Source: Candidatus Levyibacteriota bacterium (GTDB lineage Bacteria; Patescibacteriota; Microgenomatia; Levybacterales; UBA12049). Taken from it: a stretch of 64,000 nt of DNA. Position numbers and translations under genes: made by a program. The notes beneath the pieces are model-generated. The model was not told where the DNA came from. It searched no databases and was given only the letters and a program-made list of their open reading frames with translations. Positions 200-64,000 of this stretch are shown piece by piece. The stretch covers positions 134,782 through 198,781 of the forward strand of contig JBEKQZ010000002.1 of NCBI GenBank assembly GCA_049519175.1, written 5' to 3'. Numbering within the stretch: the first letter of the stretch is position 1; each line of letters starts with the position of its first letter.

Positions 200-943
200 T
201 TATTCTCGGGGGGGCATTTGTTTCATCCAGTCGTGGACGTAGATTTCGGCTGCTCCGGTTTCTATTCCCTCCAGAATTTTTTCGGCTACATATTCCGCTG
301 TGTCCGGCGGCTTAAAGTTGGGATCGTCCGAACTCCAATCCTGTTCTTGCTTTTGCGGTTTTGATTTGAGAGTATTCTTTTCAAAATCCGTTAAAGTAAT
401 ATAAGGATAAACCACACCAACGCTAATTTTGTCATCTTTGAGTTCTTCGCGAGCGGTTAAAGAGATTTGCGCCAGCGCGCGTTTTAACGAAGAATACGCC
501 GCCATATTTGGAAGCACCATTAACGCCGTTCCCGAAGAAATATTGATAATGGAACCCCCACCTTGCTTTTGCATAATGGGAATTACTGCCTGCATCGCGG
601 TGAGCGGACCAACGACGTCGAGGTTAAACAGCTCGCGGAAAGTATCTGAATTTGTTTCTTGAACAGAAGCATCATATCCCCTGCCGGCGTTGTTGACCAA
701 AATATCGATTCTGCCAAAATGTTTGAATGCTTTTGCAACCATTGCCTTAATTTGTTTTTCATTGCTCATATCGGTTTGAATTACTAATGAATCCTGAAGT
801 TGTTTGGAGATTTTTTGCAGTTTAGAAAGTGAACGCGCCGCCAATGCCACTTTGGCGCCATTTTTGGAAAGGAGTTGAGCGGTAGCCAAACCGATTCCCG
901 AAGAAGCTCCTGTGACAATCGCCACTTTACCCTGAATATTCAT
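200..943 (-). CDS. short-chain dehydrogenase/reductase (SDR) family oxidoreductase
   Basis: 247 aa. N-terminal Rossmann motif VTGASSGIG and catalytic YSSLK (YxxxK). Confidence 0.85.
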   Translation of the reverse strand: MNIQGKVAIVTGASSGIGLATAQLLSKNGAKVALAARSLSKLQKISKQLQDSLVIQTDMSNEKQIKAMVAKAFKHFGRIDILVNNAGRGYDASVQETNSDTFRELFNLDVVGPLTAMQAVIPIMQKQGGGSIINISSGTALMVLPNMAAYSSLKRALAQISLTAREELKDDKISVGVVYPYITLTDFEKNTLKSKPQKQEQDWSSDDPNFKPPDTAEYVAEKILEGIETGAAEIYVHDWMKQMPPRE

Positions 944-996
944 AGATTGAATTATGTATTTTTAAACTGAATTATTTCTGAATTTAATGCCCAAGA

Positions 997-1917
997 CTAG
1001 AATTTATCTTGGGCTAGAAAGTTTAGCAATTCCTGTCCGGTTAAGTAACCGGGGTGCAGCCGATATAAATAGTATTTGTTATCAACCGTATCTTTAATAC
1101 CGGGAAGTGTCGAGACGGCATTGGTAAATCCGGCTTGTTTAACCAAGTCGATTGTCTGCTGGTCAAATGAACCATAAGGATAAGCAAAACTAGTAATCGG
1201 CAAGTGCAATTCTTTTTGTAAGTCAATCCGGCTTTGCGCGATTTGATACCAGGTTGCATCCTTACTCATCCCTTTAAGCGCCACGTGATCCATGGTGTGA
1301 GCACCAATTTCAATCAGTGGACTTTTGGCTAAGTCCTCAAGCTGGAAAGAAAAAAGAAAATTTGGGCGGTTTAAAAAGTCCACAATAATATAGGTGACCG
1401 CTTTAACCTTTTCCTGTTTTAAAATCGGGAAAACATCGGTGTATAAATCCATATAGCCGTCATCAAAACTTAAAATAATAGGCTTCTTGGGGAAATTTTT
1501 GACTTTACCGTTAAGCGCCGGCACTAAATCTGACGGTGTAATAAAAGTATAACCGGCCGCTTTTAGTGTCTCAATCTGCGCTTCTAAGATGCTGGGGATA
1601 GTTGTTAACGATATTCTGATTGTATCATTCTTATCCTGAGGATATTCCACGTAATGAAACACTAAGATTGGTATTCTAATGGGAGCCGGACTAGTAACTT
1701 TCGGGCCGGTCTTTGCTCCAAGAACAGTAGCGACATCCGCAGGCAAAACGGTCATTTGGTTTTCTTCGTTAAGTTCGGGGATAGCGCGTGACTGATAATA
1801 TAAATATCCTCCGACAGCGACTAACAAAACCGCCAGAAGAGGAAGAAAAAATAAGCCGAATAGCTTCTTGCGGCTTTTAACAATCTTTTTCTTTTTCTTT
1901 CTGGCTGATAATTTCAA
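997..1917 (-). CDS. polysaccharide deacetylase (NodB-homology) family protein, membrane-anchored
   Basis: 306 aa. Lys-rich N-terminus followed by a TM helix. LSFDDGY and HTMDH motifs are typical of the NodB domain. Confidence 0.75.
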   Translation of the reverse strand: MKLSARKKKKKIVKSRKKLFGLFFLPLLAVLLVAVGGYLYYQSRAIPELNEENQMTVLPADVATVLGAKTGPKVTSPAPIRIPILVFHYVEYPQDKNDTIRISLTTIPSILEAQIETLKAAGYTFITPSDLVPALNGKVKNFPKKPIILSFDDGYMDLYTDVFPILKQEKVKAVTYIIVDFLNRPNFLFSFQLEDLAKSPLIEIGAHTMDHVALKGMSKDATWYQIAQSRIDLQKELHLPITSFAYPYGSFDQQTIDLVKQAGFTNAVSTLPGIKDTVDNKYYLYRLHPGYLTGQELLNFLAQDKF

Positions 1918-31917: not shown

Positions 31918-31920
31918 AAG

Positions 31921-31994
31921 TACCAGGGGTGGGGGTCGAACCCACGACCTCAGCGTTATGAATGCTGTGCTCTAACCAACTGAGCTACCCTGGC
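31921..31994 (-). tRNA. tRNA-Met(CAU) (elongator Met or lysidine-type Ile2)
   Basis: Manual cloverleaf of 74 nt: acceptor GCCAGGG/CCCTGGT with G1-U72, D-arm GCTC-AGTTGGTTA-GAGC, anticodon loop TTCATAA, T-arm GTGGG-TTCGACC-CCCAC. No CCA encoded. Confidence 0.8.
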
Positions 31995-32000
31995 TCAAAG

Positions 32001-32717
32001 CTATTTTACCACATTTAACTTCATCCCCTCAATAAAGCCTCTTGTTGAAATCAGCAAATCCAAACTATCTTTTACATGAATTCTCAAAACTCCATGATAA
32101 TTATCATCGCTATATTGCTTTTTCCATTTCGTTTGCTGATAGAAAGTTTTTGTAAATTGGTTTTTCTTTAATCCTGCGATGCTTAACCAGTAGTTTCCTA
32201 TTTCTTCTGTTCTATCTTTATAAGAGTCATTTAAAGTTAATCGAGCAATTATACTATCTTTTTTAATCCCAAAAGATTTCTCAAGCCACTTTATATAAAA
32301 CTTGATCATTCCTGGATCAGAATTACAAAAACCCAAGCGATGTTCATGTCTATTTTTAAAACCTTCTCCCCAATATAAAGCAATTCCAGCTATAAATAAA
32401 TCCCGGCCGCTTAAGTTCCCTACTTTTGAAAGTGCCTTTTGTAAAAGTTTTTTCTCATTATTAAGTTTTAAAACTTCATCTTGTTTTTGCTTTTTAATTC
32501 TTCCTGCTTGCAATGCTTTTTGAGTTCTGGATTTTAATTTTTCAAGTTGTTTCTCGGAAAGCTTAATATCTTTAATCCAACTTCGGATAGTCGTTTTGGG
32601 AACATTCGTTTCGTCGTATATTTGTCCCAAACTTAAGCCTTTTGCGCGCAATTGACGCACTTTATCCTTAAAGACCTGACTATGTTGCATATTTATATTA
32701 TGAAATGACAACTGCAC
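32001..32717 (-). CDS. HTH-domain protein, hypothetical
   Basis: 238 aa. N-terminal HTH (GLSLGQIYDETNVPKTTIRSWIK) and a Lys-rich coiled region. Stop lies 6 nt from the tRNA-Met 5' end. Confidence 0.4.
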   Translation of the reverse strand: MQLSFHNINMQHSQVFKDKVRQLRAKGLSLGQIYDETNVPKTTIRSWIKDIKLSEKQLEKLKSRTQKALQAGRIKKQKQDEVLKLNNEKKLLQKALSKVGNLSGRDLFIAGIALYWGEGFKNRHEHRLGFCNSDPGMIKFYIKWLEKSFGIKKDSIIARLTLNDSYKDRTEEIGNYWLSIAGLKKNQFTKTFYQQTKWKKQYSDDNYHGVLRIHVKDSLDLLISTRGFIEGMKLNVVK

Positions 32718-59584: not shown

Positions 59585-59940
59585 GGGGATGCAATTGCAT
59601 CGACAGGATTCGCACTTTAAAAACTGCAAGCCGGCCATGACTAAAGCCGTAAAACTAGTCAAAAATTAAATGCTAGAAGCAATTCTGCATTTCAACCAAA
59701 TTACGCATTCGCTTAATTTGAATTGATGTTCACTAAGTCTTTTCTCAATGGGACTTTTTGAGCAAAAACACAGTTGAGAAATTAATAAGGAAGTTGATTA
59801 GTTCCTTATCGAATTTATAATCTCGGTGATATTTATTCCCTTCTATTGGAAAAGAATATCGCGACTTTTAAAAGTAGAATAAGCTTGTAGAAGTTATTAA
59901 AATGTTTTCTTGGACTCGAGTTCATTGCTCGACATCTCCA
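59585..59940 (+). ncRNA. ssrA: tmRNA (transfer-messenger RNA)
   Basis: Immediately downstream of smpB. The 5' GGGGATG pairs with the 3' CATCTCC acceptor, then discriminator A. T-arm TCGAG-TTCATTG-CTCGA. Internal reading frame (59672-59716) ...ARSNSAFQPNYAFA-TAA resembles degradation tags (..YALAA). Confidence 0.75.
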
Positions 59941-61441
59941 CACTACCTTTTTTTGAGGCTGAAACCTCATTGATTAGCTTGATAGGATAAGCTAATCCAG
60001 CGGTTCCAAACCCATTTTTATAGTCGTACCTCAATTGATCCTCAAAATACATAAAAAGTATCGTCCTTTTGTCATTGTATTCATCGCTTTTCCACATGGA
60101 CATAGGGTCTTTTAACGTGTTTAAAACTTTATCTGATGCGGTTCCAAATTCTTCATTAGTATATTTTCGTTTGTTTAAATTCTCATCGCCTAGTTTCTTT
60201 TTCGATCTTAAATCTTTTATCTTCTCTTCGTAGGTCGCTATTAAATCTTCGTCCTTTGTTTTACTTATTCTCACAAGATAAGACTGAATGGCTATGTCTG
60301 CCTCCTCAGCCTCTGCTGCAATTCTGTCTCGCCATGCGGTATAGTTATCAAGCCTAATTCCCCATTGCTCTTTTAATACATCCTTTGTTAAATCAACCGT
60401 GTCGGCTGCTGGCTTAACTCTGATTAACAGTTCTTCAAATTTTGCCTCAAACTCTTTTTTGCCCGTCGTCTTCCAGTTATAGATACAACCTTTTGTCCTA
60501 CAGAAATAGTGAGGGTATCGTGTGCCTTTTCTTCCCGTACACCAACTTGCTGTCATAGGCTTGGTGCAAGCATCGCAAAGTACGTGCGGACGAAGCGGAA
60601 AAGTATCGGCATAATCTCTTCGTTTCCATGGCTTTGTACGCTCTTGTACACGCTTCTGAACTAGGTTATACGTCTCAAGCGACAGGAAACCCTCATGCCT
60701 TGCTTTCATGAAAGGAATATCCCATTTTTTGTATTCGATATAGCCTGCGTATAACGGCTCCTGCAGTATTCTTTGCGTTGTGCTCATAGATGGTCTGTTA
60801 GGAAGTCCTTTTGCTTTGTATTCTGCGTGTAAAAAACGCATTACCTCTTCTTGCGTAATGAGCAACCCGTCTCTATATTTCTCGATTGCTATCTTATAAA
60901 TAGAAGCATACGGCTCCCTCGGAGTAAGAATTTTGCCGTGGATAGGATCTTTTTTATTTATCATGCCAAGTGGTGGCATAAAAGGCCAGTAACCTTTCTC
61001 AAGTCTTGCTTTCATTTTTTGAATTACCTGCCTTCGATTACTTTTCCTCTGATATTGATTGCTAACAGCGATCATCAACTCTGCCATTTCGCTTTCATCA
61101 CTATCATCGAAGTTAAAATTGAGACATTCCCGTTTTACTCCTCTTGATTGAAACTCTGCTGTTAACTGAATATGTACTTTTACGTCCCTTGCAAAACGAG
61201 ACAAATCATCAAAGATAACTACGTAGTTTTCATGAGAGTGATCATCTATGTAACTAAGTAAGGCGTGCATGGCCGGCCTTTCAAAAAGACTTCCGGATAC
61301 AGCTTCATCAGGGAATACCTTTACAACTTCATAATCTTTGTTTTTGGCATACATTCGACATCGTTGTTCTTGTGATCCCAAACCGTTTCCCTCGTCAACT
61401 TGACGCTGTGATGAAACCCGACAATAAATTAGTGCTTTCAT
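59897..61441 (-). CDS. large serine recombinase (site-specific integrase)
   Basis: 514 aa. Resolvase catalytic domain YCRVSSQRQ...GLGSQE, recombinase domain and Cys-rich zinc ribbon. C-terminal 44 nt overlap the 3' end of ssrA. Confidence 0.85.
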   Translation of the reverse strand: MKALIYCRVSSQRQVDEGNGLGSQEQRCRMYAKNKDYEVVKVFPDEAVSGSLFERPAMHALLSYIDDHSHENYVVIFDDLSRFARDVKVHIQLTAEFQSRGVKRECLNFNFDDSDESEMAELMIAVSNQYQRKSNRRQVIQKMKARLEKGYWPFMPPLGMINKKDPIHGKILTPREPYASIYKIAIEKYRDGLLITQEEVMRFLHAEYKAKGLPNRPSMSTTQRILQEPLYAGYIEYKKWDIPFMKARHEGFLSLETYNLVQKRVQERTKPWKRRDYADTFPLRPHVLCDACTKPMTASWCTGRKGTRYPHYFCRTKGCIYNWKTTGKKEFEAKFEELLIRVKPAADTVDLTKDVLKEQWGIRLDNYTAWRDRIAAEAEEADIAIQSYLVRISKTKDEDLIATYEEKIKDLRSKKKLGDENLNKRKYTNEEFGTASDKVLNTLKDPMSMWKSDEYNDKRTILFMYFEDQLRYDYKNGFGTAGLAYPIKLINEVSASKKGSVEMSSNELESKKTF

Positions 61442-61444
61442 AAT

Positions 61445-61660
61445 TTAATTTAAATCGCTTTTTTCAACAACTGCATCTATAGTCTTATTGCAAATAAGGC
61501 GTAGCATATTTAAGAGATCTAAGACTTGTTGATCTGTCATACTGTCTCCTCTTCTGCCTAACTTTTCTCTTGCCATCTCAATTGTAATCGTTTTAGCTTC
61601 CATCTTCAAATAAAAACTCCCGTCTCGGGTGGAGTCCCTAACAGGAGCTTTTATCTCCAC
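61445..61660 (-). CDS. small hypothetical protein (71 aa), translationally coupled to recombinase
   Basis: Ends 4 nt before the recombinase start codon. No motif recognised. Confidence 0.35.
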   Translation of the reverse strand: MEIKAPVRDSTRDGSFYLKMEAKTITIEMAREKLGRRGDSMTDQQVLDLLNMLRLICNKTIDAVVEKSDLN

Positions 61661-61678
61661 CCGAATCGTTAAAATTCC

Positions 61679-62122
61679 TTACGTATTTGCCACGTTCATC
61701 ATGCCTATCCCTATTCGTTGATCAATCGTGCCGATGTTGAGGTTTGCTTTGGAGTTTTCGGCTGAGTAGAGGTCCAGCCTTAGCTTGAATAAGTCCTTTT
61801 CGATTTCCCATGAGAGCTGAATCATCCGGAGAATGGCAGATACAGGACGGTCGTAGTAGAATCGTTGTTTTGTTTCCGCATCAAGCTCTTCAAGCCTAAT
61901 TAAATATTCCCTTGCTCGTTCTTGCATTCGCCAAATTTCCGTTCGTAGTGATTGCTGATCAATCTTTGCAAGCTGTTCTTCTCGAACTTCATCTAACCAT
62001 TTTCTTATTGTTGGTCTTGAAACTCCGAAAAGTTCACACATTCTCGTCTGAGTAACTTTAGGCTGGGTAGTGACAAGGGCCCTCATCTGCAATTTCAATA
62101 TTTTTTTACCTGTTTTTTCCAT
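61679..62122 (-). CDS. HTH-domain protein (possible regulator or terminase-small-subunit-like)
   Basis: 147 aa. N-terminal HTH RMCELFGVSRPTIRKWLDE and a coiled-coil C-terminus. Confidence 0.45.
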   Translation of the reverse strand: MEKTGKKILKLQMRALVTTQPKVTQTRMCELFGVSRPTIRKWLDEVREEQLAKIDQQSLRTEIWRMQERAREYLIRLEELDAETKQRFYYDRPVSAILRMIQLSWEIEKDLFKLRLDLYSAENSKANLNIGTIDQRIGIGMMNVANT

Positions 62123-62406: not shown

Positions 62407-62895
62407 TTATTGGCACCCCATTAAAACTGGAGGGGTAAACAAACAATACATTACCCTTTGAGAACTACCCGGTATACCGCAAATATAGGGCTGGGGGGAT
62501 AGATTCCCTATGTTTGGAAGAGGATTACATAAATATGGCGTTTGTCCTGGTGGTCCACAAAATAGAGTGTGTTCTCCGTTTATTAGTGGACCGGGAGCAT
62601 TTAAGCAACCCATTACTTTATTAGAAGTCTGTGGAGCTGGAGGAACAGGAGTGGCTGTTGGGAGAATGGTAGGCGTTGGTGTATCTGTTGGAGCTTCTGT
62701 CGGAATGGAAAATGTCGGCACGGGCGATACGGATGCGTTATATTGTATCCCCAGAAAAGCATTACTAGGTTTCCATAGTAAAACAACGATAGCTACAGAA
62801 AATATTCCTAAAACAATAATCGCATTACGTACTAATTTGTCGTTTCCCTCTACTGTCTTTTCTTCCGTCTTTATACCTTTTTTCTTTTTCATCAA
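62407..62895 (-). CDS. membrane-anchored Pro/Thr-rich protein with C-terminal Cys-rich domain
   Basis: 162 aa. Basic N-terminus, TM, PTDTPTPT linker and a C-terminal domain with 8 Cys. Confidence 0.4.
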   Translation of the reverse strand: MMKKKKGIKTEEKTVEGNDKLVRNAIIVLGIFSVAIVVLLWKPSNAFLGIQYNASVSPVPTFSIPTEAPTDTPTPTILPTATPVPPAPQTSNKVMGCLNAPGPLINGEHTLFCGPPGQTPYLCNPLPNIGNLSPQPYICGIPGSSQRVMYCLFTPPVLMGCQ

Positions 62896-63155
62896 AAAGC
62901 CCTCCGCCAGCGAAGCCTTTCGACTCCTACCGCCCTTTCGGACGATAACTTTAGAGGTGCTCTGACGAAGAGCTTAATACCTCTAAAGTTTTTTAGCCAT
63001 GCTCACATTGCTGCAAGTTTAGGCAATTAACGCTAGTATAGCACACCAAAATTTATAGTAAATTCACCTCTCATAACATATAATTAGACCGTGGTGCTAA
63101 TGAAAAACATTCTTATCCTAGAAGACAATCTTATTGTTTTGTCTAAATATTTGGT

Positions 63156-63665
63156 ATGGCAATATTAGTTGACAAAAGTTTATTAAAGACAGCTTGTTTA
63201 AAAAATGCAAAAAAGCTACTAAGAGAGTCTAAAAGATTGCTTAACCAAAAAAAGTATGCGTGGTCAACTTTCTTGGCAATAACTTCTTTTGAAGAAAGTC
63301 AAAAATTAGGACTTCTAAGCATGTATGAAGGTAATTTTATATCTGAATCTGAGTTTAGAAAATATTGGCATAGTCATGAATATAAAATAAGGTCGAAGGG
63401 TGCTCGTCTACGATTCACGTTTAATATAAATAAGAAAAAACCTGAGATAGTTTTAGGATCAAAAGAGGAGGCTCAGGAAGTAATAAGGATTAGGGGAGAT
63501 TGTCTTTATGTGGATTTTAATGATATATCAATCTCAGAACCTCTAAGCATTAATATTGCAGTTGCCGTACAATATATAAACGAGGCTAATATGGAATTAA
63601 ATTCAGCTATTTCTTTAGAGCTGTTAGAAAAGAAATTAAAAAGAGCTTTTAAAGTCAAACAATAA
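63156..63665 (+). CDS. hypothetical protein with HEPN-like R-x5-H motif (AbiV-like abortive-infection candidate)
   Basis: 169 aa, AT-rich codon usage. Helical N-terminus with RKYWHSH (Rx4-6H spacing). First gene of a tightly spaced pair. Confidence 0.3.
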   Translation: MAILVDKSLLKTACLKNAKKLLRESKRLLNQKKYAWSTFLAITSFEESQKLGLLSMYEGNFISESEFRKYWHSHEYKIRSKGARLRFTFNINKKKPEIVLGSKEEAQEVIRIRGDCLYVDFNDISISEPLSINIAVAVQYINEANMELNSAISLELLEKKLKRAFKVKQ

Positions 63666-63670
63666 TAACT

Positions 63671-64000
63671 ATGAATAAAGACCAGTTAAGCTTAACAAAA
63701 GCAAAATTTCCCACTCTCTTTTCTTTTTCCCAGGACTATGAAGGAAAGGACAAGAATGATATTAGACAATATTTTAGAGATAAGCCCACTTTAATTCTAG
63801 GTGAGGGTTATTGGTTAAAATATGAACGTGCATTACAACTTTTACCAGTAGAAGACAAAAACCATCTACTCAATAAGCTTAAAACCCTAACAAAAAAACT
63901 TAGTGAACAAGAGGGATGGCCTCATTTTGAAGAGAAATTAAATGAAGCATTAGTTTACGAGTATCTTCAAAAAGAGGGATATAGGAAAATTAAATTTATT
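63671..64000 (+). CDS. hypothetical protein, partial (runs off window end)
   Basis: ATG at 63671, 5 nt after the previous stop. Open for at least 110 codons (MNKDQLSLTKAKFPTLFSFSQDYEGKDKNDIRQYF...). AT-rich. Confidence 0.35.
   Translation, partial: MNKDQLSLTKAKFPTLFSFSQDYEGKDKNDIRQYFRDKPTLILGEGYWLKYERALQLLPVEDKNHLLNKLKTLTKKLSEQEGWPHFEEKLNEALVYEYLQKEGYRKIKFI

Follow-up and report, generated by a model that had tools for sequence, protein, structure and literature searches.

We examined a 64,000-nucleotide (nt) stretch of contig JBEKQZ010000002.1 from Candidatus Levyibacteriota (Patescibacteria), hereafter the window, and focused on two adjacent genes at its end. The first encodes an AbiV-family HEPN protein, while the second encodes a predicted PD-(D/E)xK nuclease of a family not yet described. 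The two genes may form a coupled two-nuclease abortive-infection (Abi) operon, in which the partner nuclease would be both a second effector and the protein that restrains or licenses AbiV. This reading, to which we give about an even chance, rests on what was observed: the families and folds to which the two proteins are assigned, the operon arrangement, the parallel divergence of the two genes and their genomic surroundings. The features of the pair are as follows.

63156..63665, plus strand: abiV-like gene (gene 1; HEPN_AbiV family; NCBI MGA2911750.1), 169 amino acids (aa), identified by Pfam, NCBIfam, PADLOC, PDB profile and Foldseek
63357..63377, plus strand: codons R68 to H74 of gene 1 (RKYWHSH; R68-x5-H74), the motif being present with R68 unconserved and H74 invariant
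63375..63386, plus strand: codons H74-E-Y-K77 of gene 1, with the invariant His and Lys of the subfamily, aligned with H93 and K96 of Lactococcus AbiV
63492..63494, plus strand: codon R113 of gene 1, the invariant Arg in R-x-x-C-L-Y-V, aligned with the Arg of Lactococcus 'IRESSLYAD'
63666..63670, plus strand: spacer of 5 nt (taact) between gene 1 and the partner, a junction common to three diverged variants of the pair
63671..64000, plus strand: partner gene (gene 2), first 110 codons inside the window, PD-(D/E)xK fold of a family without a Pfam model
63944..63946, plus strand: codon of partner E92; the codons of P120-D121, E136 and K138 lie outside the window

The product of gene 1 is clearly an AbiV-family HEPN protein. 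It matched Pfam PF18728 (HEPN_AbiV) at 1.6e-15 (58 bits, cut-off 27.1, model positions 7-146 of 155), NCBIfam TIGR04498 (AbiV_defense) at 1.7e-16 (60.9 bits, cut-off 27) and the PADLOC AbiV model at 2.8e-8, and a profile built from 11 of its homologues matched the Lactococcus AbiV crystal structures 9bj7/9bj5 at 3.6e-6. A preliminary description of this DNA, made from the sequence alone, had noted a helical N-terminus, and the AlphaFold2 (AF2) model (predicted local distance difference test score, pLDDT, 78.5) shows it as helices H7-30 and H34-58. When this model was compared with the PDB using Foldseek, the fold was that of a HEPN protein, with the AbiV structures 9bj7, 9bj6 and 9bj5 as the best matches followed by the HEPN structures 1wol, 2hsb, 1ufb and 4nqf; the similarity to these was moderate (probability 0.9-1.0, template modelling (TM) score about 0.5). 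These results agree with the AbiV-type HEPN identity first suggested for this protein. The accompanying statement that it matches no family was incorrect, since the protein exceeds both curated cut-offs, and the identical NCBI entry, from a metagenome-assembled genome of Candidatus Levyibacteriota, already carries the name 'AbiV family abortive infection protein'. Gene 1 adds a member, itself annotated already, to a known family.

We further evaluated the RKYWHSH segment, which is found at residues 68-74 of the 169-aa open reading frame (ORF) as first described, and which had been put forward as the catalytic signature of HEPN RNases. The pattern R.{4,6}H occurs in 27% of shuffles of the gene 1 protein, and the match is therefore not significant alone. 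The two closest homologues have N in place of R68, most relatives have N, D or L, and only 2 of the 11 subfamily members have R, so that the conserved Rx4-6H of canonical HEPN proteins is not a feature of this subfamily. The residues invariant across all 11 members are E46, E47, K50, H74, K77, R113 and C116-L-Y-V119. A single-sequence alignment placed R68/H74 onto R91/H97 of Lactococcus AbiV with low posterior probability. The profile alignment, with high posterior probability, placed H74 onto H93, K77 onto K96 and R113 onto the Arg of 'IRESSLYAD'. On the variation at R68, the profile alignment and the shuffles, we rejected Rx5H as the conserved feature: H74 and K77 correspond to H93/K96 and not to R91...H97, and the residues that homologues do conserve are H74, K77 and R113 rather than the proposed R/H pair.

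In the survey of Anantharaman et al. (2013, PMC3710099), AbiV is listed without the canonical Rx4-6H: the R position still holds a basic residue, and a different conserved His is supplied by the insert that separates helices 2 and 3. Zhu et al. (2024, 10.1101/2024.05.05.592566) also note that strict conservation across the family is seen for neither the R nor the H. Both of these family-specific residues, the insert His and the basic residue at the R position, are present in gene 1 as H74 and R113, and in 11/11 homologues. Since the invariance, the profile alignment and the description in PMC3710099 agree, H74, K77 and R113 are likely to be the active-site residues. R113 is probably the equivalent of the canonical HEPN Arg, a role that we assign from the same survey.

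The stop codon of gene 1 (TAA, 63663-63665) is followed after 5 nt by the ATG of gene 2 at 63671, as the preliminary description had it. The partner ORF is truncated by the end of the window. On the source contig it is complete, with 257 aa (L001 10516..11289, window-equivalent end 64444; L001 is the locus on the source contig, and an L001 coordinate is the window coordinate minus 53155). Searches of Pfam, NCBIfam, PADLOC and PHROGs with the partner gave nothing above threshold. A word-indexed search returned three relatives only, and an exhaustive HMMER search of 1.84 billion representatives returned 290 at E<=1e-3, 30 at E<=1e-10 and 4 at E<=1e-30. All these relatives lack a Pfam domain and are labelled 'hypothetical', many of them being from Pseudomonas, Iodobacter, Tolumonas and Janthinobacterium.

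An alignment of 60 partner sequences showed E136, K138, S143 and D204 to be invariant and E92, P120, D121 and V137 to be at least 90% conserved. These residues make up the motif E92...P120-D121...E136-V-K138, which has the E...PD...ExK pattern, with E92 in a helix, P120-D121 at the start of strand 2 and E136/K138 in strand 3. The AF2 model of the partner is confident (pLDDT 91.8, predicted TM score 0.91), and its core (helix 84-101, strands 106-109, 122-125 and 131-140, helix 144-156, strand 194-201) has the alpha-beta-beta-beta-alpha-beta order of the PD-(D/E)xK superfamily, preceded by an extra N-terminal helical domain of residues 1-83. The best structural neighbours of the core were the CdiA-CT EC869-type toxin nuclease domains (PDB 4g6u, 4zqu) and other PD-(D/E)xK nucleases including AF1548; Can2, McrC, AgeI, PspGI, NgoMIV, SfsA, YaeQ, the Avs4 nuclease and HamA ranked lower, and Foldseek returned SfsA, BstEII and YaeQ with weak E-values. 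The sole recurrent Pfam match of the family was PF13020 NOV_C, which was sub-threshold and seen in 5/60 members (best E 9.5e-4). NOV_C (DUF3883) is assigned to the PD-(D/E)xK clan. The second protein, previously left without a type, can thus be predicted from fold and motif to be a PD-(D/E)xK nuclease of a family of ~290 clusters that is not yet described, the fold being assigned with confidence.

One relative of the partner, in locus L014 (5332..6795, P0015), is a 487-aa fusion, in which the partner-type nuclease domain occupies residues 224-486 behind an unrelated N-terminal domain of 223 aa. We considered whether this was an AbiV-partner fusion, but the N-terminal 223 aa are not AbiV; by eye they have a D...E-H-K pattern of their own, with no family match.

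The AbiV gene was directly upstream in all three close partner homologues that were found first. Using tblastn over the fetched loci, we observed three paired variants, namely L001, the L002 type (also L003-5, L012, L013 and L016) and L006, and the AbiV/partner identities to the query were 67/66% and 54/54% in the other two. Where named, the sources of the paired variants were all Patescibacteria; a scan of a genome collection gave nothing beyond the already known locus. In 3/3 variants the genes come in the same order and are joined by TAA-(t)aact-ATG. In neighbor-joining trees the paired AbiVs formed one clade and the paired partners formed one clade, with the same branching order. Since the paired clades branch alike while the outside relatives lack the other gene, the association arose once and was then kept through substantial divergence.

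Some of the observations weigh against a coupled pair. AbiV relatives of at most 55% identity occur without the partner (L007-L011, L022). The partner's sister clade occurs without AbiV, being fused in L014 and solo in L015 beside a serine recombinase and a tRNA, and distant members of the partner family are also solo. The pairing therefore supports an operon, yet it does not follow that either gene needs the other. Co-occurrence, which the preliminary description had proposed as a check, was thus seen in three variants and in defence or mobile contexts, while each gene was also found alone.

Solo occurrences of this kind would be expected if the two were independent single-gene defence or toxin genes, neighbours through defence-gene clustering and shared inheritance in a small clade. 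AbiV would then have its own unrecognised RNA antitoxin, and the partner would act by itself as a nuclease, for instance as a type IV-like restriction enzyme that is modification-dependent and needs no methylase. The fused partner, the treatment of AbiV by PADLOC as a single-protein system, the lack of a methyltransferase in the island and the single origin of the association are all in keeping with independence. We nevertheless consider it unlikely, as the junction of 4-5 nt is kept down to 54% protein identity and, being so short, leaves no room for a separate partner promoter, and the AbiV and partner trees are congruent. No candidate upstream RNA was found in the three variants either. The 130 nt upstream of gene 1 showed no conservation in their alignment, although sequence alone cannot prove an RNA absent, and the folding z-scores of the upstream regions (-0.41, -0.17 and +0.33) indicated no excess stability.

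In the coupled operon that we propose, the two genes would be co-transcribed as one defence unit, carried as AT-rich cargo of a serine-recombinase element that has ssrA as its integration site. Judging from Lactococcus AbiV, gene 1 would encode a metal-independent endoribonuclease that halts translation by cutting rRNA or other RNA. The partner, with its catalytic residues intact, would attack nucleic acid, most likely DNA, and would also hold or regulate AbiV, taking the role of the upstream abiV2 RNA in Lactococcus. Phage infection would then release both activities. The enzymatic activities, substrates, physical coupling and anti-phage role of the pair are those that we infer. That the locus is a previously undescribed two-protein Abi system, with the partner replacing the RNA antitoxin and the two nucleases mutually restrained until infection, is a possibility that we hold only tentatively.

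A protein that holds AbiV in check could instead be the antitoxin of an addiction module that mainly stabilises the integrative element, with AbiV as the toxin. The elements that carry the pair do have serine recombinases and lie at tmRNA or tRNA genes, HEPN proteins are common as toxins of toxin-antitoxin (TA) systems (PMC3710099), and Lactococcus AbiV itself behaves as a TA-like toxin. However, the partner, at 257 aa, is bigger than the toxin, lacks a DNA-binding domain and belongs to a family (~290 clusters) that has kept the full catalytic nuclease motif, features in which it differs from MNT and the other protein antitoxins known for HEPN toxins. The toxin-first gene order and the neighbouring defence systems also speak against an addiction module, which we regard as quite improbable. 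It is more improbable still, and was already disfavoured, that these are housekeeping genes for RNA or DNA processing with no role in conflict, as the positions of a distant partner homologue (L017) among ABC-transporter genes and of an AbiV homologue (L008) between rarA-like and serS genes might suggest, given the patchy distribution, the location in the window's lowest-GC stretch and inside a recombinase island with defence-island neighbours, and the fact that AbiV is an experimentally established anti-phage family.

The marked AT-richness first noted for the pair was confirmed. The G+C content (GC) of 63156-64000 is 30.8%, compared to a mean of 41.4% (standard deviation 3.3%) for 800-nt segments across the whole window; the window's GC minimum falls at the gene pair, and just 0.55% of these segments have a GC of 32% or less. 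Taken by gene, the values are 30.4% for AbiV, 32.4% for the partner and 30.0% for the following 219-aa ORF, while the recombinase and the other island genes have 37-42%. The cargo is therefore AT-rich as described but consists of three genes rather than two, with the third gene and the end of the block (near L001 12000) lying beyond the window.

The third gene (L001 11326..11985, window-equivalent 64481..65140) begins 36 nt past the partner. It had no match in Pfam, NCBIfam, PADLOC or PDB sequences, searches which also gave no support to an idea, formed by eye, that it might be an N-terminal-Thr hydrolase, and it does not travel with the AbiV-partner pair in other loci. Just beyond the block there are two 128-nt direct repeats (88% identical, L001 12001-12128 and 12779-12906) that bracket a 178-aa ORF with host-like GC (45%). 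The repeats had no Rfam match and no consistent excess or convincing RNA fold; they may be a boundary mark or a duplication.

The pair adjoins a tmRNA gene and a large serine recombinase, in agreement with its initial placement in an ssrA island. The features upstream of the pair are as follows.

59585..59943, plus strand: tmRNA (ssrA), Rfam RF00023, 97.8 bits, full length
59897..61441, minus strand: large serine recombinase, 514 aa, with Resolvase (1.5e-23) and Recombinase domains
61445..62122, minus strand: two small island genes of 71 aa and of 147 aa, the latter with a helix-turn-helix (HTH), directly upstream of the recombinase; the HTH matches are weak
62912..63025, minus strand: LOOT RNA, Rfam RF03000, 81 bits, full length
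63026..63155, plus strand: intergenic region of 130 nt before gene 1, the presumed promoter site

The 3' end of the recombinase gene overlaps the last 47 nt of the tmRNA, and the tmRNA is the probable integration target of the element. Because of this overlap, the 3' end that ssrA now has may come from the element. The full-length Rfam match to the tmRNA had no counterpart in the ARAGORN output. A repeat search and short BLAST found no right attachment site (attR) or displaced tmRNA 3' end, and the right boundary was not located.

The neighbours of the related loci were also examined. The L002 copy of the pair is placed in a defence island, where its neighbours are a type III restriction enzyme, a SIR2-HerA system (HerA 2.4e-172), a Cas4-like nuclease, a serine recombinase and a phospholipase D (PLD) nuclease. 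L014 carries a PDC-S06-type ATPase, L018 carries an LmuB-like ATPase and ParDE, and L006 and L015 adjoin tRNA genes. No methylase domain was found in any island gene, and the methyltransferase seen in L002 is part of another unit, of type III; the pair thus has no cognate methyltransferase in the same unit, as a restriction-modification (R-M) system would have. Neither AbiV nor the partner turned up on plasmids, phages or viral contigs.

Loci L002 (10908..11405, minus strand), L003 (1924..2421, minus strand) and L014 (7103..7615, minus strand) also have a small gene for a PLD-type nuclease (165-170 aa, PLDc_2), located downstream of the partner by a few genes. Its variants are 47% identical, and it occurs with the pair as well as with the fusion, where AbiV is missing. 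In L022, a 301-aa ORF (285..1190) overlaps the start of the AbiV relative P0007 (55% identity) by 13 nt. It carries the Cys/His pattern CIFCG...HIEP...CLLCGTHH, which by eye suggested an HNH protein; Pfam and PADLOC gave no support for this.

The LOOT RNA stops 17 nt before the start codon of a 162-aa ORF (62407..62895, minus strand) that is membrane-anchored and Pro/Thr-rich, a position that looks like that of a 5' leader and not of a free-standing small RNA. We rejected it as a component of the system, since it is absent from all related loci and lies on the opposite strand as the leader of another gene. Elsewhere, two paralogous low-GC genes (window 32001..32717, minus strand, and L001 14404..15033, plus strand; 25% identity, E 2e-14, about 30-32% GC) are directly beside tRNA genes, one at tRNA-Met 31920..31994 and the other between two tRNAs. 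Both have an HTH-like region at the N-terminus and the motif 'YW(G/C)EG.K...NSDP', and may be mobile or homing-type genes.

Our literature search found nothing on AbiV in Patescibacteria, and neither the AbiV-partner pairing nor the partner family is described in the sources searched. The preliminary view of an undescribed pair is hence retained for the pairing and for the partner family, and dropped for gene 1, which was already AbiV in NCBI. For a long time AbiV was regarded as a system of one gene, and the need for a second, RNA component was shown only in 2024. If an AbiV lineage has indeed become welded to a protein nuclease, the second component would be exchangeable, and the pair would offer a handle on how AbiV is silenced and triggered. 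Were the two-protein reading true, the partner would represent a new Pfam-less family of defence nucleases (~290 clusters), members of which also serve singly, or within other fusions, in Proteobacteria and Patescibacteria. A widespread unannotated protein family is now given a fold and a catalytic motif, and the Patescibacteria, whose phage defences are poorly known, gain a testable candidate defence module. The principle is not new, as the linkage of HEPN RNases with restriction-type nucleases is already a known theme.

When we compared the pair with known systems, the partner was seen to share its E...PD...ExK catalytic pattern with the CdiA-CT EC869-type domains (PDB 4g6u, 4zqu), AF1548, SfsA, YaeQ, Can2 and McrC. 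Like the HEPN-MNT type II/VII TA systems, the locus has a small HEPN toxin and an adjacent protein gene in one operon; however, the partner is not a nucleotidyltransferase, and the AbiV family is separate from the DUF86 HEPN toxins. A HEPN RNase is tied to a restriction-endonuclease-fold nuclease here as it is in PrrC-EcoprrI R-M and in the fusions of HEPN with restriction endonucleases (REases) (DUF4145-REase, EC042_2821; PMC3710099). That survey interprets HEPN-REase couplings as a defence with several prongs, the DNA nuclease serving in addition to restrain the RNase, and its AbiV row gives no associations or partner. In contrast to those systems, the present locus has no ABC ATPase, methylase or specificity subunit, and the coupling is by operon and not by fusion.

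The nearest comparison is with AbiV of Lactococcus cremoris MG1363 (abiV1 protein and abiV2 RNA; 9bj5-9bj7; 10.1101/2024.05.05.592566). That protein, the only family member for which RNase activity and an Abi phenotype are known, is a metal-independent RNase that degrades rRNA and is toxic if cloned alone; it needs the upstream abiV2 RNA, its inhibitor, and a phage protein, SaV, plays a part in sensitivity to the system. Both proteins belong to the same Pfam/NCBIfam family and have a HEPN fold whose helices 2 and 3 are separated by an insert, and their H-x-x-K and R-x-x-x-L-Y motifs align. They differ in length (169 aa here, 201 aa in Lactococcus), with an identity of about 20%, and in host, which here is a member of the Patescibacteria, and the experimentally tested R91 of Lactococcus AbiV has no conserved counterpart here. 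Both loci are two-component, the second component being an upstream non-coding RNA in Lactococcus and a downstream 257-aa PD-(D/E)xK gene in Candidatus Levyibacteriota.
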